A program made the position numbers and the translations under genes. Below, piece after piece: positions 3,332 through 50,034 of a stretch of DNA of 64,000 nt (position 1 is the stretch's first letter; each line of letters opens with the position of its first letter). Source of the stretch: a bacterium (lineage in GTDB: Bacteria > SZUA-182 > DTGQ01 > JAFGSM01); the NCBI GenBank assembly GCA_049472355.1, contig JBLIRP010000001.1, positions 26,993-90,992 on the forward strand, in the 5' to 3' direction. The notes beneath the pieces are model-generated. The model searched no databases. It saw only the letters and a program-made list of their open reading frames with translations, and was not told the origin of the DNA.

Positions 3332-4555
3332 TTACGGGATATGGTCCCCGGTGCATGCAATGAAGCACCGGCTTACCCTGGGCGCAATCGGCGGCGGTTT
3401 CCTTTCCCCCTCGATTGCCGCTGCTTCTGCGGTATGAAAGGTGAAGCAGCATTCACCGCCTGCCACTCCGTCCAGGTCCCCATCCAGGAGGCGGCCGTAA
3501 ATATCGGCGGCCTGATCGGCAAGGCATACCGTGTAGCAGGTCCCCGGATCAAGCGGCGCATGAGGTACAAATATGCACTCGGAGAGGGCATCCTCCCAGG
3601 TGAAGCGCCCCTGCACAGGGGGAGTGATGCTGAAGGCACGCTCCACCCCATTAAGATCCATGGATTGGCTGAACATGATCCTTATGGACGCGTCGGCGTC
3701 GACCCCTATGGCGCCATTGTAAGGGCTGGTGGATTCAACCGTGGGAACCGCTCCGTACTGAGCGCTGAGCCCTGAGGTATCGAAGGATTCCGGGGACGTA
3801 CCGCCGCCTCCTCCACCCCCCCCTCCGGATGATGCCTCCACTGCCTCCTCTCGCTGGGGAAGGAATCCGTAGGGAAAAGTATCACGAAGGCCTTCAGTTG
3901 AAGGCGTTTTTTGGTGATCCTGAGCGCTTCCCTTGTTGGTCAGCTCGATCACCTTCCTTTCCTTGTTCTCGTTTGTTTGCGGAGCATCCTCGGTCTCCTC
4001 GGGCGGCGCCTCCGTCTCGTCCGTTTCCTCGCCTACGCAGGCAAAGATCCCCGGCTGTGTGTCCCACTCTGCGAAATCATCCATTTTTCGTGAAAACACG
4101 AGTAGACTCTCCGCCTCTTCACAACTGCGACATTTGAATTCAAGATGGAGAAGGTCCGCGGTCGTATCGATGGTCACCGGGGAGACACTGATACCTCCTG
4201 CCCTCAACAATCCCTCGGAGGGGTTCGAGACCTCGAAGAAATCAAATCGGTCCCTTGCCTTGCCGGGAGCGTAATTCACGTATTCGAGGACCGCACTGTT
4301 GAACCGTATCTCAAAACCGAAGGCGGATAATTCCGTGGGGCCGGGGCTGATCATCACCACAAAGCTGACGGTATCCCCCGGTTTTGCACTCCGTGAGCCA
4401 ATCATGATACCCGATTCAACCGGAGAAGAAAAGGGCGTGAACAGCAGAAGGGCCACCATGAAGCAGCCTGTTGCGATGCAAGTCCTTCGAAATTGGTTAC
4501 GCACTGAAGGGATCTCCCTGATGCGGGTGTATGAATCCTGCCGACAATGTCCCAC
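3332..4555 (-). CDS. secreted protein with an N-terminal cohesin-like module, an acidic and poly-Gly linker, and a C-terminal SbsA-type Ig-like domain
   Basis: Hydrophobic signal segment, then a cohesin-like beta-sandwich pattern (GDTVSFVVMISPGPTELSAFGFEIRFNSAVLEYVNY). A G9 run follows. The C-terminal region (SPYNGAIGVDADASIRIMFSQSMD...) resembles the Big_5/SbsA Ig-like fold. Confidence 0.55.
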   Translation of the reverse strand: MGHCRQDSYTRIREIPSVRNQFRRTCIATGCFMVALLLFTPFSSPVESGIMIGSRSAKPGDTVSFVVMISPGPTELSAFGFEIRFNSAVLEYVNYAPGKARDRFDFFEVSNPSEGLLRAGGISVSPVTIDTTADLLHLEFKCRSCEEAESLLVFSRKMDDFAEWDTQPGIFACVGEETDETEAPPEETEDAPQTNENKERKVIELTNKGSAQDHQKTPSTEGLRDTFPYGFLPQREEAVEASSGGGGGGGGGTSPESFDTSGLSAQYGAVPTVESTSPYNGAIGVDADASIRIMFSQSMDLNGVERAFSITPPVQGRFTWEDALSECIFVPHAPLDPGTCYTVCLADQAADIYGRLLDGDLDGVAGGECCFTFHTAEAAAIEGERKPPPIAPRVSRCFIACTGDHIP

Positions 4556-4628
4556 GACTATCCATATTATTCATCAAAAGGGATGGTGTCAATGCCTTTT
4601 TCACTACGATCCGGGCTGCAGTGGAACT

Positions 4629-5240
4629 TCACAGGAGCGTTTCCACAAAGCACAGGCCATATCCGGAATCCTCTCCGAATACGATAGGGTCGTCGAAAAA
4701 CTCGCATGAGGGGGGAGTGTCCAGTGTTCCATTCTCCGTGTCCCAGTCTTCGACGCCATCTATAAGCGTGCAGAGACTGAGATTGCTCGCTGCACATGGC
4801 GCTATCACTGCAAACGTGAGCCTCGCAAGCTCGCCCGATTCCCCCTCGTTGATCCCTGTTCCCTCGCTTGGCGCGATGCCGGCAACCCTTACCACCCCGG
4901 ATTCAGGCGTTGATGCTTCGAACATGTCAAATTGCGCGGCCAGTTCACCCTGTTCAAGGCGCTCGAATTCAAGGATATTCGGGTCGAAGCATATCTCGAG
5001 ACCGAATGCCTCCACGTCATTCGGTGCATCATATACCATGACTGACAATGATACGGATGAATAGGTGATGCCGGACGGCCCCATGTCGAGGGTCAGGGAT
5101 GCCGCAGATGTTGCAGGAGGCATGGCCATAATGGACATAAAGGATATGAACACCAGAAGTGCGAGTGCGACGACCGCTTCGGAAATGGCTGACACCGTAT
5201 TCACAGAGAGCAGAATGTATGGTAGAGAGTCGGAACACAC
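4629..5240 (-). CDS. secreted cohesin-like domain protein
   Basis: Signal and transmembrane segment, then VSLSVMVYDAPNDVEAFGLEICFDPNILEFERLEQGEL, which fits the cohesin module pattern. A paralogous module is present in the adjacent gene. Confidence 0.5.
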   Translation of the reverse strand: MCSDSLPYILLSVNTVSAISEAVVALALLVFISFMSIMAMPPATSAASLTLDMGPSGITYSSVSLSVMVYDAPNDVEAFGLEICFDPNILEFERLEQGELAAQFDMFEASTPESGVVRVAGIAPSEGTGINEGESGELARLTFAVIAPCAASNLSLCTLIDGVEDWDTENGTLDTPPSCEFFDDPIVFGEDSGYGLCFVETLL

Positions 5241-5906
5241 AGTAAATTACCACATTCTTCTTAGGTAGATACACGCAATAGGTCTTTATGCGGCCACACA
5301 CTATGAGAAGTATAATGAAAAAAGGCGGCATAATTTATGATTATATTAAAATTGTAGCGTTTGACGCGGGCTTTTGCAAGTGTTTTTCCACCCCAGCGGC
5401 ATAACGTTAATTTCAACATCTTCTCAAATAGAGATAGCAGAAATGGATTATTGCCGCCGTCCCTGAACTGACCCGGGAATACGCGTCACCGTGCGCCCAA
5501 ATCATGGCGAATGTCCAAACCCACGTCTTTTAATGGACCCCTGCAATGACTCTTTAAGGTTTTACCTGCATGTGCGTATACACAGATAAAAAAGTCCGGT
5601 TCTTCAGGGGAACCCGACGTAATACGTATAATCATAAGATCCCGGAAAACGAATGACCTGAGCGGCGTCACGCTTAATGAAGCCTATGATACGGCGCATG
5701 ATACGAACGCCGCTCAAGTATTTGGCAACCTTGCACCTTGCGCGGTGAAGCTCAAAGTCAGGCCTAGAAGGATTTTCCTTTGTTCTCAATTATAGACCAA
5801 TCATTCATGCTGCTTTATACAATGAGATTCGCGATGGGCATGTGATAATGTCACACAGAATTAAGATGTGCTCAAGATACCGTGTATTGAATGAGGACGG
5901 CCAATA

Positions 5907-6464
5907 TCAGGGAATCATAGTGGGATAGCCACCAAAACCTCCTAATCCGCCGTACGTACCATACGCATTGGTGCTGTAACCGTACCCGAGGCCTGTACCG
6001 TATCCCAAGCCGGTGCCATAGCCATACCCAAGACCCGTACCGTAACCATATCCAAGGCCGGTGCCATACCCGTACCCCAGGCCCGTGCCGTAACCATACC
6101 CAAGACCGGTAGAATATCCAGGGTAACCATATCCCAGACCCGTGCCAAGACCGTAAAGGAGAGAACCCCCTCTGGAGTCGTCAAAATAATCCCAATCATA
6201 CGAGTGGTGGTATTCACCACCCATTATTCCTCCCATTCCGCCCATGCCGCTCATACCATAGCCCGATGGGTAAAATCCGTAACCGTTGTAAGCATAACCG
6301 CCCCATCCATAACCGCCGTAGCTGCTTCCCATGGCGCCGCCCATGCCGCCGCCTCCCTTTCCGTTGGCAATGGCATTATAGTGCATTGCGGTGGTCACCA
6401 GCATAAGCGCTGCCAATAGTGCGATCGCCATGAACAACAGATTTCTTAATCTCATACCAGACAT
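5907..6464 (-). CDS. secreted Gly/Tyr-rich repetitive protein (GLGYGYGT octapeptide repeats)
   Basis: Signal peptide MSGMRLRNLLFMAIALLAALMLV. About 75% of residues are G, Y, M or S. There are six or more near-perfect GTGLGYGY repeats encoded by 24-bp tandem DNA repeats. Confidence 0.55.
   Translation of the reverse strand: MSGMRLRNLLFMAIALLAALMLVTTAMHYNAIANGKGGGGMGGAMGSSYGGYGWGGYAYNGYGFYPSGYGMSGMGGMGGIMGGEYHHSYDWDYFDDSRGGSLLYGLGTGLGYGYPGYSTGLGYGYGTGLGYGYGTGLGYGYGTGLGYGYGTGLGYGTGLGYGYSTNAYGTYGGLGGFGGYPTMIP
5975..6150. repeat. 24-bp in-frame tandem repeat array inside the Gly/Tyr-rich gene
   Basis: Repeating ccgtaccc[a/c]aggcc[c/g]gt[a/g]ccgta... units are visible directly in the sequence. 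Confidence 0.6.
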
Positions 6465-7150
6465 ACCTCCCTCCGTGTAGATTGCCTTAAACTGAATGTC
6501 TCATCAGGCATGTTGAAGGTGTACGATACATGAAAATCATAGAGGCAAATTTTCCTGACAATCACCCCCTTTCTCTGTTCTAAAAGCCGATCCTAACTAC
6601 CTCATTTGTCGTGGTGGATATGGGTAAGATCTGTCTGGTTTGTAAGATTTCTTGATAAATGGACCCCAATCCATCATTCATCTTTTTCGAAATCGATAGA
6701 ATGCAAAAATTACTGTGAGTATTCTTAAATAAGGATCTATAATGAGGGTATTATATTTTCAAATGAATAGGTGATACTTCCCTACAGACTTCCAGATCAG
6801 TATATTCGGATTGTACGGGCCATTTTTTGGTTTATCGACTACCAGTATACCGTTACTGCATATTTTGTCAATATTTCCAAGCGAAATCGATTCACTCGTC
6901 TGTCAAGCCAATGGACAACAAGACTCTCAAACACGAGAACCTCCCCACTATATTTTACAGTATGTTAAAATTAAAATGGTTATCTTCAAATTCGATGAAT
7001 TCCCGCACAATGAACCTGTTAAAGGTGTACACGAAGATGTTCTTCGTGGAGGCATTATTGGAAATGGAGATCATGCGGTGACGAGTGGATCATGATTTCA
7101 AGGAAGCCGCGACGGATGGCAAGAGAAGTTCCGCACGTATGCGGACGCAA

Positions 7151-7912
7151 TCAGGTGCGGGGTGATTCGAGGAGCCTGTAGAGAACGGCCCCGCCAAGGA
7201 CCAGGAGCAGGCTGATCAATTGGGTGAGGTTCAGGTGGCCGATCAGGACGAAGCGCCAGTCGCCCCTGAAGAACTCGACAAAAAAGCGGCCTGTGCCGTA
7301 CAGACACAGATAGAGCGCGAAGATCTGCCCGGATGCACGCCTTCCCTTCCTCAGGATGCTGAACAGGATCAGGAACACGGCGAGATTGGCCAGGGAATGA
7401 TAGAGCTGGGTGGGATGGAGGGCTATCCCCAGGGGAGCCAGGGAATTGGGATTGGTGAAGACTACCCCCCACGGAAGGTCGGTCGGCCTTCCGTAGCAGC
7501 ATCCCGCCATGAAGCACCCCATTCTTCCTATGGCCTGGGCGATGGCAAGGGCGGGGGCAAGGATGTCGAGCGTCTTCCAGAAGGGGAGTGCGTATCGTTT
7601 TATGAGCACGATCGTGGCGAGGACCCCTCCCAGGATGCCCCCGTAGAAAACCAGTCCACCCTCCCACAGCTTGAGTATCTTGAGGGGGTCGTGGATATAT
7701 TCCGCCGGATACATCACCACGAAGAGTATCCTTGAGCCCACGATGCCGGCCAGGATCACGAAGAATCCGAGGTCTGCGAGCTTTGCGGTATCGATTCCCC
7801 TGTTTTTTGCCTGCCTGTAGATAAAGGCGGTGGCGGCGAGAAAGGCGATCGCCAGCGCCAATCCGTAGGTATAGAGGGCGAAGGGGCCTATTTTGAACAG
7901 GACCGGGCACAC
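7151..7912 (-). CDS. lgt: prolipoprotein diacylglyceryl transferase
   Basis: 253 aa polytopic membrane protein. The Lgt signature region is present (GGLVFYGGILGG ... RMGCFMAGCCYGRPTDLPWGV). Confidence 0.85.
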   Translation of the reverse strand: MCPVLFKIGPFALYTYGLALAIAFLAATAFIYRQAKNRGIDTAKLADLGFFVILAGIVGSRILFVVMYPAEYIHDPLKILKLWEGGLVFYGGILGGVLATIVLIKRYALPFWKTLDILAPALAIAQAIGRMGCFMAGCCYGRPTDLPWGVVFTNPNSLAPLGIALHPTQLYHSLANLAVFLILFSILRKGRRASGQIFALYLCLYGTGRFFVEFFRGDWRFVLIGHLNLTQLISLLLVLGGAVLYRLLESPRT

Positions 7913-13748: not shown

Positions 13749-16223
13749 ATGAGCTTTCATGGCATCTCTTTACGTAAACCCATAGAGGAAATGTACCCGA
13801 TACGGTATCATATCCTGGTCGCATCCATTCTCATATGTGCCTCGCTGGTGCTCATCCTTGTACCCGGAAGGGGGATAGCCCAGACCGGCAGCATTTCAGG
13901 GAAGGTCCATGAATACCTGCATCCCACCGTACCCATTTATGGCATTCAGGTGACCGTCTTTGATCAGAGCAATAGCCCGGTCAGGAATGTGATGACCGAT
14001 CCGAATTTCCCGTATGATCCCAATAGCACCGAGCCCAAATGGGTCGACGGATATTTTAAAATCGACAAACTACCCGTGGGAAAATACCGGGTGTGCGCCA
14101 TGGGACCAACCTATGACGAGGATGGAGATCCCATTTACTGGGTATCGGAATGCTATGAAACCAATTGCACCGGTCCGCAATGCGGGTATTATATTACCGA
14201 GTATCCCGAGGATTTTGCCAACACCCTCGTGGAGGTCAATCAAGGACTGACCACAACGGGCGTCAATTTCTACCTTGCCCGCTCAGGACTGATCGAAGGG
14301 GATGTATATACACATACGGGCTATCCGGATTATTATGTCTCGTACAAGGTGACCGTCAAGTACAAGGACAATCCCCCTCTGGTGCTTCCACAGTATACAA
14401 GCGCCAGTAAGATAACCGATGAAGGCTACAGGATCGTGAACTGTCCTCCGGGAAGCTTTATCATCAAGGTCGAGGACTGGATTCAAGTCACCAATCCCTA
14501 TGATGCATACTACATAACCCAGTACTGGCCCCAGAAATACGTCGAGGCACAGGCGCAGGCCATTGTCCTGGGCTGCGGGCAGAACAATGTGCGGACCGGG
14601 ATAAATTTCCAAATGAAGCAGGGCGGAGCAATCCAGGGGTACATCAAGAAACAGGACGGCACCCAGACGACCGACACCAGATATGCGGATGTGGTCCTCA
14701 TCGAGGAAAACCTGGGATACATGCAGTCCATGCAGACCAACCAGTTTCCGATTGTGGATCCGGATGACCCTAATCATGTTGTCTCCTTCGTCCCTGGCAA
14801 ATACAAGTTCGGCGGGCTCTCGCCGGGGAATTACGCCCTGTATGCGGAACTGGTGGGCGCCCAGGGTGAAAATGATCCCGAGCCGCCCAACATCGATTAC
14901 CTTGGTGAATTTTATAACAACCTGCATTTCAAGTCCCAGCTTGATCCCTCGTATGAGGAGCAGATCGACTACATCCCGATTACGGGGCCGGATCAGACCA
15001 GAAACATCGACGTAGTGCTCGACCGCGCCCCCAAATTGAGCGGAAAGGTCACCAAGAGCGGCACCAGTACCGTCTTGCCGGGGATACAGATATTCATTAA
15101 TGAAAAATCAACCGGACGGTTCGTTGCAGACACACTCACCGACAGTGCCGGCAATTACCTTTTTGACTCCTCACGGGGTATCCTGCCCGATCTTTACACC
15201 GTTACCGCTTGGGACCCGAATGCCGTGTATGTGCCGTCTGAATCCGATATCACCATGGCGGTGAACCAGCAGTATACCAAGAACCTTTCCATGTCGGTCG
15301 GCTCTACGGGTGTAGGGACGATCTCCGGCCGGGTCTTTCTGGATGACGACCCTGCAAAGCCCTTGGAGGGCATCCAGGTCGTGGCATACAGCATCAGCCT
15401 CAAAAAGGCGTACGAAAAATCTACCAATGCAAACGGCGAGTATTCGATCGAGGGGATCAGGAGCGGGTATATCCTCGTCTTTACCAGCAAGGAAGAGGAG
15501 CTCATGAGCAGGCTCTACAAGGATCTCAACGTGCCTCCCGACGGTTACCAGCAGTCCCCTGAGAACCTGGATCAACTGGTAATCATCGCAGGCAGCCAAA
15601 GACGGCTATTCCTCAATGTCAACCAGCATATCACCGGGATCGATATCGGGGTTTCTTCCTTCAGGCGCACCTTCCATTCCGGCCTCAATCTGTTCGGATA
15701 TTCAGGGGAGCCGGTCGTTGAATACGAGACGGCATACAAACTGGTCAAGGGCATCGGAGATGACGATGACCTGCACAAGCTCGTGTGGCATGATCCCAAT
15801 ACGAATGCCTGGCATGCCGTATGGCTCAATCCCAGCGATCCCAACCATCCCCCTGTCGGCGTCAACTGCTCCATCACCCCGGGGAAGGGATATATGATTT
15901 TTATGAATGAGACGGTCAGCCCCGTGGTGATGCCGCCGTTTACCATTACCTTCCCCGACTATTACGCCCTGGAGTCAGGGAAGAATCTTTTCTCCTATCC
16001 ACCCTCTCTCTATCGACCCCTTCTAACGTCATCCGAGCTTATCTCCGCAATCGATGATCCGGATGCGGTGGCGGGCGTGCGCTCGTATAACGGCTTCACC
16101 GGGCAATGGAAGAGCACTGTCCGGATGTGGGGACGACCCTGTTCGGGAGGGTTTCCGCTTCGGCAGGGAGAGGCCTATCTGGTGGAGATGAAATCATTTC
16201 AGTACCTTATCCCTCCGCAATAG
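13749..16223 (+). CDS. large secreted protein with several CarboxypepD_reg-like (Cna-B/transthyretin-like) domains
   Basis: Signal peptide, probably starting at MYPIRY around 13791. Three GxISGxV...GIQV... modules characteristic of the carboxypeptidase regulatory-like fold. About 800 aa, no enzymatic motif seen. Confidence 0.55.
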   Translation: MSFHGISLRKPIEEMYPIRYHILVASILICASLVLILVPGRGIAQTGSISGKVHEYLHPTVPIYGIQVTVFDQSNSPVRNVMTDPNFPYDPNSTEPKWVDGYFKIDKLPVGKYRVCAMGPTYDEDGDPIYWVSECYETNCTGPQCGYYITEYPEDFANTLVEVNQGLTTTGVNFYLARSGLIEGDVYTHTGYPDYYVSYKVTVKYKDNPPLVLPQYTSASKITDEGYRIVNCPPGSFIIKVEDWIQVTNPYDAYYITQYWPQKYVEAQAQAIVLGCGQNNVRTGINFQMKQGGAIQGYIKKQDGTQTTDTRYADVVLIEENLGYMQSMQTNQFPIVDPDDPNHVVSFVPGKYKFGGLSPGNYALYAELVGAQGENDPEPPNIDYLGEFYNNLHFKSQLDPSYEEQIDYIPITGPDQTRNIDVVLDRAPKLSGKVTKSGTSTVLPGIQIFINEKSTGRFVADTLTDSAGNYLFDSSRGILPDLYTVTAWDPNAVYVPSESDITMAVNQQYTKNLSMSVGSTGVGTISGRVFLDDDPAKPLEGIQVVAYSISLKKAYEKSTNANGEYSIEGIRSGYILVFTSKEEELMSRLYKDLNVPPDGYQQSPENLDQLVIIAGSQRRLFLNVNQHITGIDIGVSSFRRTFHSGLNLFGYSGEPVVEYETAYKLVKGIGDDDDLHKLVWHDPNTNAWHAVWLNPSDPNHPPVGVNCSITPGKGYMIFMNETVSPVVMPPFTITFPDYYALESGKNLFSYPPSLYRPLLTSSELISAIDDPDAVAGVRSYNGFTGQWKSTVRMWGRPCSGGFPLRQGEAYLVEMKSFQYLIPPQ

Positions 16224-16333: not shown

Positions 16334-18229
16334 TTGGGTATGAGGAGGAAGGATGGTTCACGCCCCCTTTTTGTGTGGAATTGTGTCCTGGCAGTGATTC
16401 TCTGTATGGTATGCCTCTCATGTGCGGCGTGGGCGGATACCTTCGTATGGCAGGACTTCGAATACTGGGATTCCCCAAGAAATCACGGATGGGTCTGCTC
16501 GTCGCCATCCTATCCGGTGTGGGGACCGGTGGGGTACGGCAGCCTTCGGACCGCCATAGACGCGCGCTTGCAGAGCAGGGTCCTGGTGGTCGAGAGCATG
16601 CCCTCCACGTTCAACAACTTCTTCCGCTTCCGCACACTCAACGCCTCGGTCCCCGACCCAAATCCATCCACACAGGGATTCGATAAGAATATCATATCCT
16701 TCAATATCATCAATCGATTCGGGATAGAGCAGTTCGAACAGTGGGAGGCGCAGATACATGTGGAAACCAGAAACGGCAGGAATGTGCTGCTGGTGTATCG
16801 TCCGCGGGGTGCATCCGAGTCGGGGCCCGAGGTGGGCGGTTATGCGGAATACGGGTACAGGGGAGCGATCAATGGGGGGGACCCTGAGCGTTCCGATCGT
16901 CCCCTGGTGGTGATCTACGACATCGGGAGACAATACCAGGACGGCGCATGGCACCTTGTGGTGAGGGATCTTGACGAGGACATTCGGAAGATCGGGATGT
17001 GGCAGGGGATCGATTTTTCCCTTGACGGATTCGGCCAGGAATTGTTTTACGGGCCTGAGCAATCCGCCATCGTCTCCGTCATGTTTGCCGGGTTCACGAT
17101 GAGGGTTGACAATATCGCCTTTCACGACCGCATGCTCGATATCGTCAACCACCCTCCGAAACTCCAGAGGATCGGTCCCCAATTCGCGCAGATATTCGTC
17201 CCCTTCAGCTATCTCATCTCCGTGTATGAACGTTCGGACATGAGCGGTTTCGTTGACGAGCGGTACGAATTCGTTGCGACCATCGGCGGATACGGATACA
17301 GGGGCGTCCAGACCTCCGACATGATCTTCAGGGTAAAGGAGGATCCGAATAACCCGGGACACTATCGTGCCTGTGAGCCGGACGATCCGGCCTGCCTCCC
17401 TGACAAGGTCCTGTTGGAATTTGTTCCCCAGACCTTTGAGGACCTCATCATCACCATACGGGTAACGAATCCGGGAGGGCTTACTGACATGGAGACATTC
17501 CCCCTCTCGGTGGTCAACTATCCGGTGGTCAATCATCCCCCCTACCTCGAGGAGATAGAGAACGATGTCTATCTGCTGGGAACAAACGAGGGATACTTCG
17601 AGAAGTCCTTTATTTGCTTCGACCAGGACATGGAGGATCATCCGGGATCTGCCATGGAGCCCGGAAATATCACCTACCGGGCGATTATCGACACTGCACC
17701 CAATTACCGGTTCGGACCATGGCAGGAGACATTGATCCCCGAGCCTTTCACGCCGGTGATACGATTCAGCCCCCGATTCGAGGGCGTACATCGTATCACG
17801 GTTATTGCCACCGATTCGAGGGGGCTTTTCGCCATAACCGGCTTCACACTGCATGTGGTGAATCCGGGCACATGGCTCAACCACCCTCCGATACTGGGTG
17901 AGGATATCGATAGCCCGCAGATGGTTCGGGTGGGAGAGACCTTCGCCATCCCCGTCGAATTTTTGGACCCTGACAACGAGGAGATATACTATTCATGCAA
18001 CATCGGGAGCATCACCACAATGGAAGAGGGATTCGGAAAGACGCCGGGAAGCAGCATGGGCATCACCGAAGGGGAGGATAGATATGGCAGATACGTGAGC
18101 GGGGCGATCTTTCACTTCGTGTCGCCCTTCCCCGGAACATACCATATCCTTATCACCGCTTATGATCTCAGGGGAGGCTATTGCACGGCCGAATTCATCC
18201 TGGATGTCCAGCCATGGTGGGCACTCTAA
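16334..18229 (+). CDS. secreted NHPP-repeat (cadherin/Ig-like) protein, paralog family member A
   Basis: Signal peptide, conserved DTFVWQDFEYW N-terminal domain, then repeats beginning IVNHPPKLQRIGPQ, VVNYPVVNHPPY and GTWLNHPPI. The C-terminus is ...DVQPWWAL. It shares extensive collinear similarity with the ORFs at 48169-50034 and 57708-59927. Confidence 0.7.
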   Translation: MGMRRKDGSRPLFVWNCVLAVILCMVCLSCAAWADTFVWQDFEYWDSPRNHGWVCSSPSYPVWGPVGYGSLRTAIDARLQSRVLVVESMPSTFNNFFRFRTLNASVPDPNPSTQGFDKNIISFNIINRFGIEQFEQWEAQIHVETRNGRNVLLVYRPRGASESGPEVGGYAEYGYRGAINGGDPERSDRPLVVIYDIGRQYQDGAWHLVVRDLDEDIRKIGMWQGIDFSLDGFGQELFYGPEQSAIVSVMFAGFTMRVDNIAFHDRMLDIVNHPPKLQRIGPQFAQIFVPFSYLISVYERSDMSGFVDERYEFVATIGGYGYRGVQTSDMIFRVKEDPNNPGHYRACEPDDPACLPDKVLLEFVPQTFEDLIITIRVTNPGGLTDMETFPLSVVNYPVVNHPPYLEEIENDVYLLGTNEGYFEKSFICFDQDMEDHPGSAMEPGNITYRAIIDTAPNYRFGPWQETLIPEPFTPVIRFSPRFEGVHRITVIATDSRGLFAITGFTLHVVNPGTWLNHPPILGEDIDSPQMVRVGETFAIPVEFLDPDNEEIYYSCNIGSITTMEEGFGKTPGSSMGITEGEDRYGRYVSGAIFHFVSPFPGTYHILITAYDLRGGYCTAEFILDVQPWWAL

Positions 18230-29136: not shown

Positions 29137-30222
29137 TTGCATATACTACATCAAAACACCCTTCATCCCTGGACGAGGAATCGACGAGTGAGTATTCGTG
29201 AGGAGCTTGAACGAATCGAGGAGGCAACGCTCTCTCCCAAGGCATGCTTGAGCATCAATACACGGGGACGTCAAACCCCGGAGGAGCCGTGTCCCATTCG
29301 TCCGGCATTTCAGAGGGACAGGGACCGAATCATCCACTCCAAGTCCTTCCGTCGCCTCAAGCACAAAACCCAGGTGTTTCTGAGCCCCTTCGGTGATCAT
29401 TACCGGACCAGGCTCACCCATACCCTGGAGGTCTCGCAGATTGCCCGTACCATAGCCAAGGCCCTCAAACTGAACGAGACCCTGACCGAGGCCATCGCCA
29501 TGGGCCATGATCTCGGACATACCCCTTTTGGGCACGCCGGGGAGGAGGTGCTCAATACAATCCATCCGGGTGGATTCAAGCACAATGAACAGAGCCTGAG
29601 GGTGGTGGAGAAACTGGAGAAGGAGGGAAAGGGATTGAACCTGACCGCGGAGGTGCGGGACGGCATCCTCCACCACTCCAAGGGGAGAGGGGATATTCTC
29701 CCCGATAAAGGGGACAGGGCGCTGACCATGGAGGGGGAGATTGTCCGACTTGCCGATATCATGGCATACGTGAATCACGACATCGATGATGCGCTCAGGG
29801 CCGGAATTATCAAGCAGGAGGACCTTCCTCCGGAGGGCACACGCATCCTTGGCCACAGTGTTGCGGAAAGGATCGATACCCTCGTGAAGGATGTCATTTA
29901 CTCCACCTTGAGGTGCGACGTGGCGATAATCACCATGAGCGATGAAGTGCTCACGGCCACCGACCTCCTCCGCAGGTTCCTGTACAACAATGTATACTAT
30001 AATCCGGTTACCAGGGCGGAGTTTGAGAAGGCCTCCAAGATCATTCAAGAGCTCTATGCATACTATCTTATCCATTCGGAGCAGATTATCTCCCAGGGGC
30101 CACAAGAAGAGGGGGAATGTACCGATAGACTCGTATGTGACTTTATCGCAGGAATGACCGACCGGTATGCCCTCATGACCTATGAAAAAGTCTTTCTTCC
30201 CCAGCCCTGGATGGTCCTGTGA
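29137..30222 (+). CDS. dGTPase-like HD-domain phosphohydrolase
   Basis: HD motif ([13 protein letters not shown] ... [14 protein letters not shown]), typical of the dGTP triphosphohydrolase-like family. An alternative GTG start exists at 29188. Confidence 0.75.
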
Positions 30223-31010
30223 TGAGATTGGCCATTGTAATCCCTGCACGCTATGGATCGACGCGGTTTGAAGGAAAGCCCCTTGCCCCCCTTCTGGGCA
30301 AGCCCATGATTCGGCATGTGTACGAGCGTGCCGCAAGGGCTCGCCTGGCGGATGCAGTGGTGGTGGCGACCGACGATGATCGAATCGCCTGCTCGGTGAA
30401 GGGTTTCGGGGGAACCGTGGTCATGACCTCCGCCAGCCATCAAACCGGCACGGATCGAATTGCGGAGGTGGCGGAAGGGCTTGATGTTGAATGGATTATA
30501 AACCTCCAGGGGGATGAGCCCTTGATACAGCCGGAGATCATCGACCTGCTTGCACGGTCCATGATGGGGTCCCCTCACGAGCATATGTTCAGCCTCATGC
30601 GTCCCGTGGCTACGGTTGATGAGTACATGAGTCCACACGCGGTAAAGGTGGTCACCGATCACCAGGGATATGCCCTTTATTTTTCACGGGCACCGATTCC
30701 ATGCCCCAAGGGCGGATGGTCAGAGCTACAGGGCGATTCCGAGGGTCATCCGGCGATGAAAAATGCCCATATCCATTGCGGCATCTACGGCTACCGGAAG
30801 GACTTTCTCCTTGCCATTCCATCGATGAGGCCGTCAGTCTTGGAGTGTACGGAGGGGCTGGAGCAGCTTCGGATACTATCCAATGGGCACAGGATCGTGA
30901 TGATCCGCACCGAATACCGGGGCATCGGGGTGGATACGCCCGGGGATATCCCGGTTGTCGAGGATCTGTTGAGAAGGGAAAAAAGATCACTCATGCCCGG
31001 GGCAGGCTGA
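30219..31010 (+). CDS. kdsB: 3-deoxy-manno-octulosonate cytidylyltransferase (CMP-KDO synthetase)
   Basis: [16 protein letters not shown]-terminal motif. 263 aa. ATGA overlap with the upstream gene. Confidence 0.9.
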
Positions 31011-37227: not shown

Positions 37228-37869
37228 ATGGATGAGGAAAAAAGGGAGGCGAATGGGGAAGGGATGCCCGGTCACGATTCACGTTACCGAAGAAAGCGAT
37301 TCTATATTCAGAGGATGTTTCAGGCAAAATTCATCCTTGCCTTCCTCCTGCTGGTGATTATCGGCAGCATCGTATCGGGAATCATTTTTTATACCAAGGC
37401 CAATACCTATCTGGGGTATCACTATGGCATGGCGCATTTGAAGCTGAAGAAGACAGGGGAGATCCTGCAACCGGCCCTCTTTATCTCGTACGGCATAGGT
37501 GTTGTTTTGATAGGGATTGCCACCATCTTTTTGACCATTTTCATCTCCCACAAGGTTGCCGGTCCGCTGTACCGGTTCGAGCGCAGTGCAGAGGAGATCG
37601 GCAAAGGCAACCTCACGCTGGTGACCCGTATCAGGGGGACGGATCAGGCACGGGACCTGGCGGACGCCCTCAGTCGCATGACGAGCGAATTGAGGAGTAA
37701 ATTGCTCGAAATTGATTCCAATGCCAAAAGGCTTCACCATGTTGTCGACACCATGGGCAGCCTGATGGAAGGGAAACCTTCCGATATGATGGAGATTAAA
37801 AAGGAATTTGAGGAGCTAAAGCAGGTGACGAGGAATCTGAATCAAGCTGTCCAATATTTTAAGCTTTAG
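37228..37869 (+). CDS. membrane protein with two TM helices and a HAMP domain, no output domain
   Basis: Two hydrophobic helices flank a periplasmic loop. A HAMP-like amphipathic segment follows (VAGPLYRFERSAEEIGKGNLTLVTRIRGTDQARDLADALSRMTSEL). Confidence 0.5.
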   Translation: MDEEKREANGEGMPGHDSRYRRKRFYIQRMFQAKFILAFLLLVIIGSIVSGIIFYTKANTYLGYHYGMAHLKLKKTGEILQPALFISYGIGVVLIGIATIFLTIFISHKVAGPLYRFERSAEEIGKGNLTLVTRIRGTDQARDLADALSRMTSELRSKLLEIDSNAKRLHHVVDTMGSLMEGKPSDMMEIKKEFEELKQVTRNLNQAVQYFKL

Positions 37870-48168: not shown

Positions 48169-50034
48169 CTAAAAGGTCCACCAGGGCTCCACGTCCAGCA
48201 GGAAGGTCATCACTGCATACCCTCCTCTGATATCGTAGGCGATGATCTCAACAAGATATCTTCCCGGCCAGGGAGTGGTCAGGGTGTAGACCGCCCCGCT
48301 CACGTATCTGCCCTTCTTATCCTCGTCGACGGTTTGGCCGATTTCGCTTTCGGGCGTAATGCCGAATCCCGGTTTCATTTCCGTTACACTGCCGATATTG
48401 CATGAATAGTGGATGACATCACCGTCAGGGTCGAAGAATTCAACGGGGATAAGGAATGTCCTTCCGGCCTTGGCAATCTGGGGACTGTCGATGTCTTCGC
48501 AGAGTATGGGGGGATGATTCAACCAGGTCCCGTAATTTACCACCACCAGGGTAAATTCGGTCACCGCCGAAAGCCCTCGCGGATCGGTGGCAATAACCTG
48601 AATCCGGTAAATCCCTTCGAACTGTGGACTGAAGCTGATTTCAGGCACGCAGGGCACCGGGATGATGGGTTCCTGCCAGGGACCATACTGGTAACTGGGG
48701 AGACCATTAATCAGGGCCGAGTAGGTGATGTTTCCCGGCTCCTCGATCGTACCGGGGATGTCTTCTTCATCCTTGTCGTAGCAGACAAATTGCTTGACAA
48801 AATAGCCCTCGTTGCTCCCCAGGATATAGACGTCGTCCTCGATCTCCTCAAAATAAGGCGGGTGGTTCTCCACCGGGTAATTGACCACCGACAAGGGAAA
48901 GGTTTCGATGTCCGAGAGGCCTCCCTCGTCCACCACCCGGATGGTCACTATGAGGTCCTCGAAATGCTGGGGGACAAACTGCAGCATCACCTTGTCCTTG
49001 GCGCATGCGGGATCGCTATTCGCACACAGGATATAGGAGCCGGCATTGTTCGGGTCCTCCTTGACACGGTGGATCAAATCGGTGGTCTGAATGCCTTGGG
49101 AGCCGTATCCCCCTATTGTGGCGAGGAATTCGAGCCTTGACTCGTCTGAGGCGCCGGTGAGCTCGATATCGGTGGCGGTGATGAGGGTGCTGAACGGCAC
49201 GAAGAGCTGGGCATACTGTGGTCCGATCCGCTGCAGCTTGGGAGGATGGTTGATGATATCCCCCAATGTATCGTGAAAGGCGATATTATCAACCATCAGT
49301 TGATACCCCTTCAGCATAATGGAGAGTATCCGTGATTCACCGGGGCCAAAAATGGACTTACCGAATCCGTCCCTGTCGGTGTCGTCCATTTCGTACCCCA
49401 AAGCCATGGCTACATCCCGGTCCAGGTCTCGAAGCACCAGGTGCCAGGTCCCATCCTGATATTGCCTGCCCAGTTCATACACATAACCGGGGGGATCCAT
49501 CCTTCCACTAAATATGTCCCCGGGTCTTCCCTCGTAGGGTATAGGACCTGACTCACCCTGGCCTACCGGGCGATAGATAAGATTGACCTGCTCACCCTTA
49601 CGGGACACGAGGAATACCTGCACCTCCCATTGATCGAACCACTCTATGCCGAACCACATGCGAATATTGAATGAGATGATACTCTTGTCGCTGATGGGAT
49701 CTCCATTGGGGTAGGTGACGGACTCATTCCATGCAAAAAATGGATAGAATTGATTCAGGTGGGACATCATGCATTCATAGAGAAGGACCCTGCTCTGCAA
49801 TCCCGGGTCGATCACCGTGGATATGCGCCCGAATCCGGTATAGGGGCACCATCCGTAGACCGGATAAGGGGGACAGGAGCTCTTCCACCCATAGGTGCTC
49901 GGTGCATTCCAGTACTCAAAATCCTGCCACACGAAGGTATCTGCCCGGGCGCCGGGTCCGGTCAGCAGAAGGTGGAAGCATGCAGCCATCATACATACGA
50001 TGACAACGAGTACGAATCCCCTCTTTTTCACCAT
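48169..50034 (-). CDS. secreted NHPP-repeat (cadherin/Ig-like) protein, paralog family member B
   Basis: Signal peptide, DTFVWQDFEYWNAPSTYGW, IINHPPKLQRIGPQ, VVNYPVENHPPYFEE and GTWLNHPPI. The C-terminus is ...DVEPWWTF. Collinear with members A and C. Confidence 0.7.
   Translation of the reverse strand: MVKKRGFVLVVIVCMMAACFHLLLTGPGARADTFVWQDFEYWNAPSTYGWKSSCPPYPVYGWCPYTGFGRISTVIDPGLQSRVLLYECMMSHLNQFYPFFAWNESVTYPNGDPISDKSIISFNIRMWFGIEWFDQWEVQVFLVSRKGEQVNLIYRPVGQGESGPIPYEGRPGDIFSGRMDPPGYVYELGRQYQDGTWHLVLRDLDRDVAMALGYEMDDTDRDGFGKSIFGPGESRILSIMLKGYQLMVDNIAFHDTLGDIINHPPKLQRIGPQYAQLFVPFSTLITATDIELTGASDESRLEFLATIGGYGSQGIQTTDLIHRVKEDPNNAGSYILCANSDPACAKDKVMLQFVPQHFEDLIVTIRVVDEGGLSDIETFPLSVVNYPVENHPPYFEEIEDDVYILGSNEGYFVKQFVCYDKDEEDIPGTIEEPGNITYSALINGLPSYQYGPWQEPIIPVPCVPEISFSPQFEGIYRIQVIATDPRGLSAVTEFTLVVVNYGTWLNHPPILCEDIDSPQIAKAGRTFLIPVEFFDPDGDVIHYSCNIGSVTEMKPGFGITPESEIGQTVDEDKKGRYVSGAVYTLTTPWPGRYLVEIIAYDIRGGYAVMTFLLDVEPWWTF

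Follow-up and report, generated by a model that had tools for sequence, protein, structure and literature searches.

The locus described here raises the question of what a bacterium might make with an exported protein dominated by glycine and tyrosine, and how the repeats of such a protein have been maintained. The protein is encoded in a stretch of 64,000 nucleotides (contig JBLIRP010000001.1, positions 26,993 to 90,992 of the forward strand), hereafter the window, from the metagenome-assembled genome (MAG) of an uncultivated bacterium. Its open reading frame (ORF), here called the GY gene, occupies exactly positions 5907..6464 of the window on the minus strand and comprises 185 codons, with the ATG at 6464 and the stop codon at 5909-5907. 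A Shine-Dalgarno-like GGAGGGAGG can be read off the sequence at 6466..6474 (minus strand), its first GGAGG ending 5 nt 5' of the ATG, and the ORF list contained no competing ORF of more than 92 amino acids (aa) overlapping 5907..6464. The whole gene with its flanks was also found at 100% identity in a separate Logan assembly (run DRR851362, contig L001). Based on the ORF list and translation, the identical second assembly and the restriction of variation between repeat units to third codon positions, the Gly/Tyr ORF is a genuine gene. The first-pass annotation of the sequence had likewise taken it for a real gene of an exported, Gly/Tyr-rich, low-complexity repeat protein, which agrees with the ORF, the Shine-Dalgarno-like element and ATG, and the signal-like N-terminus of the predicted product.

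The repeats had been described as six or more near-identical octapeptides encoded by perfect or near-identical 24-bp DNA repeats. At the peptide level this largely holds, as there are five perfect GTGLGYGY units (aa 107, 126, 134, 142 and 156) and one STGLGYGY (aa 118), while a seventh unit is truncated to the six residues GTGLGY (aa 150). At the DNA level it does not. The mean pairwise identity of the 24-bp units is 77%, exact DNA repeats in the tract reach no more than 14 nt, Tandem Repeats Finder (TRF) reported 74% matches at period 24 and 84% at period 48, and a repeat search gave units 61-84% identical to their reference copies. Among the five perfect units variation touches every one of the eight third-codon columns and none of the 16 first- and second-position columns; by chance, eight variable columns among 24 would all land on third positions once in 735,471 cases. 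Codon identity between units is 0.35, with 0.34 expected from random synonymous choice. When the peptide was recoded at random 5000 times with the codon usage of the gene itself, the units were expected to be 0.768 ± 0.021 identical at the nucleotide level (0.778 ± 0.022 with housekeeping codon usage), and the observed value is 0.783. The identity of the units is thus that of random recoding, and therefore their DNA similarity is entirely imposed by the peptide. As variation between the units is only synonymous and their identity is at this level, the frame and strand are correct, a collapsed assembly is implausible and slippage-type instability is unlikely.

The age of the array was judged from silent sites. 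Four-fold-site divergence between the units is 0.67 (Jukes-Cantor distance ~1.65, near saturation), whereas orthologous genes of the nearest relative differ by 0.21-0.24 (Jukes-Cantor distance ~0.25-0.29), so that the units have accumulated about three times the between-genome value. We therefore conclude that the repeats are neither recently expanded nor homogenised, contrary to what the first-pass annotation had proposed, and a contingency-type DNA repeat was rejected on the same values (0.783 against 0.768 ± 0.021, no exact repeat above 14 nt, divergence 0.67). Because identical peptides carry scrambled codons and silent divergence exceeds the between-species level, the repeats appear to be old and kept by selection. 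Either they would far predate the split from the sister species, under purifying selection on each residue, or codon diversity itself would have been selected. The scrambled codons would also render the array genetically stable, as they leave no DNA repeat above 14 nt.

The N-terminus of the GY protein looks like a Sec signal. The segment MSGMRLRNLLFMAIALLAALMLVTTAMHYNAIA (aa 1-33; 6366..6464, minus strand) contains R5 and R7, a hydrophobic run of about 19 residues from L9 to M27, and A-I-A before N34 (NG follows MSGMRLRNLLFMAIALLAALMLVTTAMHYNAIA), which together give the features of n-, h- and c-regions and an AXA site with putative cleavage after A-I-A; the hydrophobic run could also be an anchor. 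AlphaFold predicts a helix for residues 2-34 with a predicted local distance difference test (pLDDT) score above 90. This is the sole confident part of the model, the pLDDT being below 50 over residues 38-185. Inspection of the sequence revealed neither a lipobox Cys nor a twin-arginine motif, and there is no hydrophobic segment beyond residue 33. The whole protein contains 33.5% G, 15.7% Y, 9.7% L, 6.5% M, 6.5% T and 5.4% S. The earlier description of a protein made almost entirely of G, Y, M and S is thus accurate for G and Y, which dominate, but L and T come next, and M and S are minor. The putative mature part (aa 34-185) would be a 15.2-kDa protein with an isoelectric point (pI) of 4.7, 40% G, 18% Y and no Cys, and the richest 60-aa window holds 43 G and Y residues. 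By prediction and composition, the GY protein is intrinsically disordered, of low complexity, acidic and Cys-free.

Four regions can be delineated in the putative mature part (all on the minus strand). Region A (aa 34-83; 6216..6365) is rich in Gly, Met and Tyr, with GGM-type and GxxxG motifs around an aromatic core (YGGYGWGGYAYNGYGFYPSGYG), and was modelled with a pLDDT below 50. It is followed by a hinge that is, by composition, acidic and rich in His and aromatic residues (aa 84-99, EYHHSYDWDYFDDSRG; 6168..6215). Of the nine residues of the mature protein that can ionise (D, E, K, R, H), eight lie in this hinge, the ninth being K36. Region B (aa 100-163; 5976..6167) is the octapeptide array, covered by the TRF rows 5983-6111 and the repeat families D1 and D2; it alternates strictly between Gly and another residue over aa 104-114 (11 residues) and aa 119-163 (45 residues), in tracts composed of TGLGYGYG octads. 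The C-terminal tail (aa 164-185, STNAYGTYGGLGGFGGYPTMIP; 5910..5975) is a short Gly/aromatic stretch, has no recognisable sorting signal and matched no Pfam or NCBIfam model.

A word-indexed search of 5.8 billion protein clusters with the GY protein yielded nothing at E <= 1e-3. When 1.84 billion representatives were scanned in full with HMMER, 66 weak matches emerged, the best at 4e-9; 65 of them align on the repeat tract only and almost all are junk ORFs over simple repeats of the (GVGxG)n type. One small beta-barrel-like protein (P0044) aligned over the full length at E 5.6e-4; it was judged a compositional match, and the C-terminus of the GY protein (…YPTMIP) lacks a terminal aromatic residue. 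There was no credible match in Pfam, NCBIfam, PADLOC, PHROGs or the PDB sequences, the sole Pfam match at E <= 10 being a spurious one to TarH. Searching Joint Genome Institute (JGI) metagenome contigs with back-translated peptides gave no confirmed relative; three matches to the pattern LGYGYGTGLG were due to chance, one of them a BamA-like loop. No GY relative was found in viral contigs, and blastn of the 1769-bp segment that carries the gene returned nothing from plasmids or phages. A role in anti-phage defence or an origin as a phage protein was set aside, given the lack of matches to PADLOC and PHROGs models and viral contigs. A composition scan detected no paralogue in the window or in 50 fetched loci. 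The first-pass annotation had suggested looking for orthologues with variable repeat counts; no orthologue was found, and the gene is absent from the three relatives described below. As far as these searches reach, the GY gene is a lineage-restricted orphan. The exact protein, tried with three alternative starts, is not in a collection of 15 billion proteins either. That collection does include a neighbouring cohesin protein encoded on the same NCBI MAG contig (111,463 bp), so the GY gene may be unannotated in the public record.

A resemblance was found in an unannotated 290-aa protein, P0045, encoded at 312-1184 of a contig (L047; 61% GC) from JGI metagenome 3300010371. In common with the GY protein, it has a signal-like hydrophobic segment followed by xTGxGYGY octads, two of them exact HTGLGYGY, with 63% identity over the repeat tract. 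The similarity does not, however, extend beyond the repeats: N-terminal and C-terminal parts are different, the C-terminal domain being unrelated. Adjacent units of P0045 are identical in DNA, the classic pattern of young duplications, which the GY gene does not show. The resemblance is probably due to convergence, and P0045 may represent a second secreted GYGY-repeat protein.

The window is an ordinary diderm chromosome carrying lptE, holA, a class II aldolase gene, ileS-lspA-TPR-lgt, histidine biosynthesis genes, accBC, rpsB-tsf-pyrH-frr, secDF and a CXXCH cytochrome gene, among others; the presence of lptE, lgt and lspA identifies the host as diderm. On the minus strand, lgt (7912-7151) comes first, separated from the GY gene by an AT-rich spacer of 686 bp; after the GY gene and a further spacer of 666 bp come two genes for cohesin-domain proteins, at 4629-5240 and at 3332-4555, the latter with a Big_5 domain (Pfam Cohesin PF00963, E 1e-5 and 1e-7). 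The GY gene had been placed directly upstream of this cohesin-like pair. It is indeed on the same strand and next in order, but the 666-bp spacer lies between, which holds a weak terminator-like hairpin and the conserved upstream region of the cohesin genes themselves. The GY gene is probably its own transcription unit.

Comparison with related genomes by blastn (L002, L051 and L052) revealed that the GY gene and its AT-rich flanks form a lineage-specific segment of 1769 bp (5381..7149; GC content 0.40 upstream and 0.46 downstream of the gene). In the nearest genome found, MAG contig JBLIRN010000010.1 (L002), where Lgt is 92% identical and collinearity extends on both sides, an unrelated sequence of 498 bp that lacks a GY-like ORF takes the place of window positions 7149-5381. 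L051 and L052 also lack the gene; in L051 a gene whose translation, judged by eye, is receiver-domain-like ends upstream of the cohesin pair, and L052 has small HicA-like and DUF2283 genes there. The 140-bp region upstream of the cohesin genes (5241-5380) is conserved in L002 and L051, in both of which homology ends at the same base, 5380, while the homology of L052 ends further in, at 5267. As the relatives keep the cohesin pair but carry other DNA next to it, the GY gene is, on the sequence comparison, cargo of a variable spot and not co-conserved with the cohesin pair. The link to the cohesins implied by the first-pass annotation finds no support here: all three relatives retain the pair beside unrelated DNA. 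The spot corresponds to window 5381-7149, L002 10764-11261, L051 1-317 and L052 1-1579; its cargo differs each time, and L002 has none.

What the protein does was approached by comparison with known Gly-rich systems. The GY protein is most like the Gly/Tyr-rich silk-like material proteins and designed Gly-Tyr amyloid peptides, and it belongs to none of the sequence families tested. Fibrils assembled from the designed, prion-inspired peptide Ac-GYGYGYG-NH2 (GY7) are thioflavin-T-positive, have a width of 8-20 nm and retain Cu, Ni, Co and Zn (PMC10510724; PMC8163036). They expose phenols and are described as redox-active (PMC10510724). The GY protein shares the alternation of Gly and Tyr, with GYGYG occurring in five of its seven units (the four perfect units with a unit directly after them, and STGLGYGY). 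GY7 is, however, a 7-mer made by design and no natural protein, while the GY protein has Thr or Leu at half of the non-Gly positions, and its tract would lie within an exported protein of 152 residues. Silk-like structural proteins, a class defined on metazoa, have a signal peptide, at least 25% Gly in an 80-aa window and a mature part free of transmembrane domains, form materials and evolved independently many times in animals (PMC4944945). The GY protein likewise has at least 25% Gly per 80 aa and no transmembrane domain in its mature part. It resembles metazoan Gly/Tyr material proteins (trematode eggshell proteins, high-glycine-tyrosine keratin-associated proteins and the GY domains of mollusc shell-matrix proteins) in its signal-like N-terminus, more than 25% Gly, high Tyr and low-complexity repeats, but its host is a diderm bacterium, there is no sequence homology, and no tyrosinase or peroxidase partner was seen at the locus. 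In the literature found with terms of the 'GY-rich' type, only animal proteins or eukaryotic RNA-binding proteins appeared. The first-pass annotation was right as to the composition (40% G and 18% Y in the mature part), which resembles that of animal Gly/Tyr-rich structural proteins and amyloid-prone sequences.

In fibroin of the Bombyx type, (Gly-X)n alternation over tens of residues gives beta-sheets with one Gly face. The GY protein has the same strict alternation of Gly, but in fibroin X is Ala or Ser and the tract runs to thousands of residues, while here X is Thr, Leu or Tyr and the tract totals 56 residues. Curli CsgA and Fap are Sec-exported repeat proteins that polymerise outside the cell; their repeats are about 19-40 residues long and Gln/Asn-rich, and they come with dedicated genes for a nucleator and an outer-membrane channel. 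The apparent Sec-type export of a repeat protein is common to both cases. An amyloid of the curli or Fap type was nevertheless rejected, as no Pfam or NCBIfam model matched and the neighbouring genes are lgt, TPR, lspA, ileS, the cohesins and the aldolase. A Gly-zipper outer-membrane lipoprotein (Gly-zipper_Omp, YMGG or OmpA) was discarded in the same way for want of a Pfam match and a Cys. The LG-repeat proteins of magnetosomes (Mms6, MamG, MamD) seem a poor fit: the tract is not a hydrophobic membrane segment and the window contains no magnetosome genes.

The reading that we favour, and to which we give somewhat less than an even chance, is that the GY protein is a self-associating, silk-like or amyloid-like material protein exported to the envelope or the extracellular space. 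The face geometry of the alternating tract, the precedent of the GY7 fibrils and the silk-like signature speak for it. After export, the alternating tract would form extended strands with an all-Gly face opposite a Tyr/Leu/Thr face, the geometry by which silk-type and polar-zipper sheets can stack. Tyrosine ladders and Gly-Gly packing could then hold such strands together in silk-like or amyloid-like sheets, or tyrosine 'stickers' could draw them into condensates, and the product would be an envelope or extracellular material that assembles by itself. In this scheme the N-terminal half, rich in Gly and Met, could provide flexible spacing, and solubility gating or metal binding could fall to the single acidic His/Asp patch.

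Several points weigh against self-assembly of this kind. The 64-kb window contains no dedicated secretion, nucleator or cross-linking partner, unlike the loci of curli, Fap and Cdz. The gene is absent from the sister species, and therefore cannot encode a core envelope component. AlphaFold gives disorder and not beta structure. In a diderm, a Sec signal alone delivers a protein only to the periplasm, and the long hydrophobic segment could be an uncleaved anchor. In addition, the GY7 peptide needs a high critical concentration for fibrillation (PMC10510724). A bolder form of the material reading, which we consider doubtful, would place the protein beside silk-like or prion-inspired tyrosine-ladder materials as their natural counterpart in bacteria. 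It would be a Sec-exported (X-Gly)n protein of independent evolutionary origin which, in the envelope of an uncultivated anaerobe, polymerises into Tyr-decorated fibres of cross-beta or silk-like type. Each repeat residue would then be held by selection while the codons were 'scrambled' so that the array cannot recombine or slip, and the fibres could bind metals or carry charge through stacked phenols, in the way reported of GY7 fibrils.

Other explanations were weighed against a material protein. The GY protein could be a bacteriocin-like or contact-dependent antibacterial that damages the membranes of competitors in the manner of Cdz, Gly-rich microcins, or the Gly/Tyr-rich antimicrobial peptides of animals and plants, although we find this improbable. 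The contact-dependent Cdz glycine-zipper bacteriocins are Gly-rich, aliphatic-hydrophobic proteins of 5-10 kDa that form aggregates at the cell surface; horizontal acquisition is frequent among them, and close relatives lack them (PMC5380434). The GY gene resembles them in encoding a small, Gly-rich, aggregation-prone and apparently exported protein, in its patchy, accessory occurrence in a variable spot, where L052 carries toxin-antitoxin-type modules, and in the GxxxG motifs of region A. A Cdz-like protein proper was rejected because the mature GY protein, at 15.2 kDa and pI 4.7, is larger, acidic and aromatic and its flanks hold no ABC/MFP or immunity genes. Against an antibacterial more generally, genes for type I secretion, immunity or processing are lacking nearby, the leader is of the Sec type and not a bacteriocin leader, and there was no bacteriocin match in Pfam at E <= 10 or NCBIfam at E <= 1. 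Periplasmic metal binding or redox buffering, with the Met-rich GGM/MGGM motifs, the HH...D.D..DD patch and the many tyrosine phenols as scavengers of Cu, other cations or oxidants, has in our estimate only a slim chance. The 12 Met and the cluster of two adjacent His and four Asp would suit it, as would the ability of the tyrosine-ladder GY7 fibrils to retain Cu, Ni, Co and Zn and the redox activity ascribed to them (PMC10510724), and a multihaem-type CXXCH protein encoded in the window points to periplasmic redox chemistry in the organism. Yet no copper-resistance or metal-homeostasis genes are adjacent, no metal-binding Pfam family matched, and the octads, the most strongly conserved part of the protein, lack classical ligand residues.

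Position and strand, together with the match of both downstream proteins to PF00963, could suggest that the GY protein is a ligand or cargo of these cohesin-domain proteins, displayed on a cohesin scaffold. This we regard as very improbable, since the protein has no dockerin match at E <= 10 nor any other domain, the cohesin genes lie beyond the 666-bp spacer with a conserved upstream region of their own, and L002, L051 and L052 keep the pair without a GY gene. Scarcely credible is the view that the gene is an artefact, be it a collapsed or chimeric repeat, a spurious ORF on the opposite strand or a slippage-prone contingency repeat. It could draw on the lack of homologues anywhere searched, on the absence of the exact protein from the 15-billion collection and on the weak HMMER matches, most of which are junk ORFs over simple repeats. 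But exact repeats of at most 14 nt are below assembler k-mers and the second assembly is identical, which argues against the assembly collapse that the first-pass annotation had considered. Its other reservation, an ORF lying opposite a real gene, is countered by the synonymous-only variation (all eight variable columns at third positions, 1 in 735,471) and by the lack of an overlapping ORF longer than 92 aa. Identity at the random-recoding level excludes slippage and recent expansion.

If the favoured reading of a self-assembling material is correct, the GY protein would be a bacterial example of a Gly/Tyr-rich, signal-peptide-bearing material protein, a type so far described only in animals, and a natural analogue of the designed Gly-Tyr amyloid peptides, which would make it of interest for biomaterials. 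What is unusual, as far as the sequence tells, is a bacterial secreted low-complexity repeat protein with a codon-scrambled, perfectly conserved array. Evolutionarily it is a puzzle: the peptide repeats are perfect, their silent sites have diverged to the level of random recoding and no relative is detectable. The puzzle is sharpened by a sister species that lacks the gene although it differs by only ~0.25-0.29 substitutions per silent site. The array would also illustrate cleanly how strongly a low-complexity sequence can be selected, and how a repeat array stays genetically stable when its DNA is non-repetitive. As a single orphan gene of an uncultivated genome, its immediate impact is modest.

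Some signals bear on the expression of the gene. Glycine is encoded by GGT in 34% and GGG in 10% of cases, compared with 30% and 19% in rpsB, tsf and frr, and 14% and 33% in 20 housekeeping genes. The Gly codon choice thus resembles that of translation genes and differs from that of average genes, a weak hint of high expression. A sigma-70-like promoter candidate, TTGACA-16-TATACT, matching at 11 of 12 positions, lies at 6844..6871 (minus strand), about 380 nt 5' of the ATG, and no sigma-54 pattern was found in the spacer upstream of the gene. The terminator-like hairpin followed by a T-run is at 5598..5614 (minus strand), about 290 nt past the stop codon; it is weak, its folding being no better than that of shuffled sequences (z = -0.9). 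Neither sigma-70 nor terminator matches in the region exceeded their number in shuffles.

Signs of a mobile element at the locus were sparse. The window has no tRNA gene and no credible Rfam match, and the lone inverted repeat is at about chance level. This imperfect repeat of 17 nt (5594-5610 / 7263-7279, 88% complementary) surrounds most of the variable segment, with one arm in the terminator-like hairpin and the other inside lgt; by a rough estimate ~0.2 such pairs are expected by chance, so it is probably fortuitous.

The cohesin genes form a conserved two-gene module (window 3332-5380 on the minus strand, L002 11262-13301, L051 318-2434, L052 1580-3485), for which only five homologues were found in the 5.8 billion clusters. 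It encodes a protein of ~200 aa and one of ~400 aa with a poly-Gly linker and Big_5, both with N-terminal hydrophobic segments and with conserved, Cys-containing C-termini, …GYGLCFV[EG]TL[LF] and …RVSRCFI[AT]CT…, which might be a sorting or modification signal. In L052, a JGI contig, the homologue of the first cohesin gene (1607-2217) is split into the overlapping ORFs 1607-1957 and 1951-2217 by an apparent frameshift, either a sequencing error or the mark of a pseudogene.

Elsewhere in the window, four ORFs of 213-631 aa had no Pfam match: 16334-18229 (plus strand) at E <= 1e-6, and 48169-50034 (minus), 29146-30336 (minus) and 37228-37869 (plus) at E <= 1e-5. The first of these also lacked an NCBIfam match, and the strand of 29146-30336 is uncertain, as it overlaps a plus-strand ORF of similar length. 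Finally, CarboxypepD_reg-like domains occur in the 824-aa product of the ORF at 13749-16223 (plus strand), which also matched TIGR04134, 'radical SAM-associated putative lipoprotein', at 25.6 bits, below the cut-off of 39.8.

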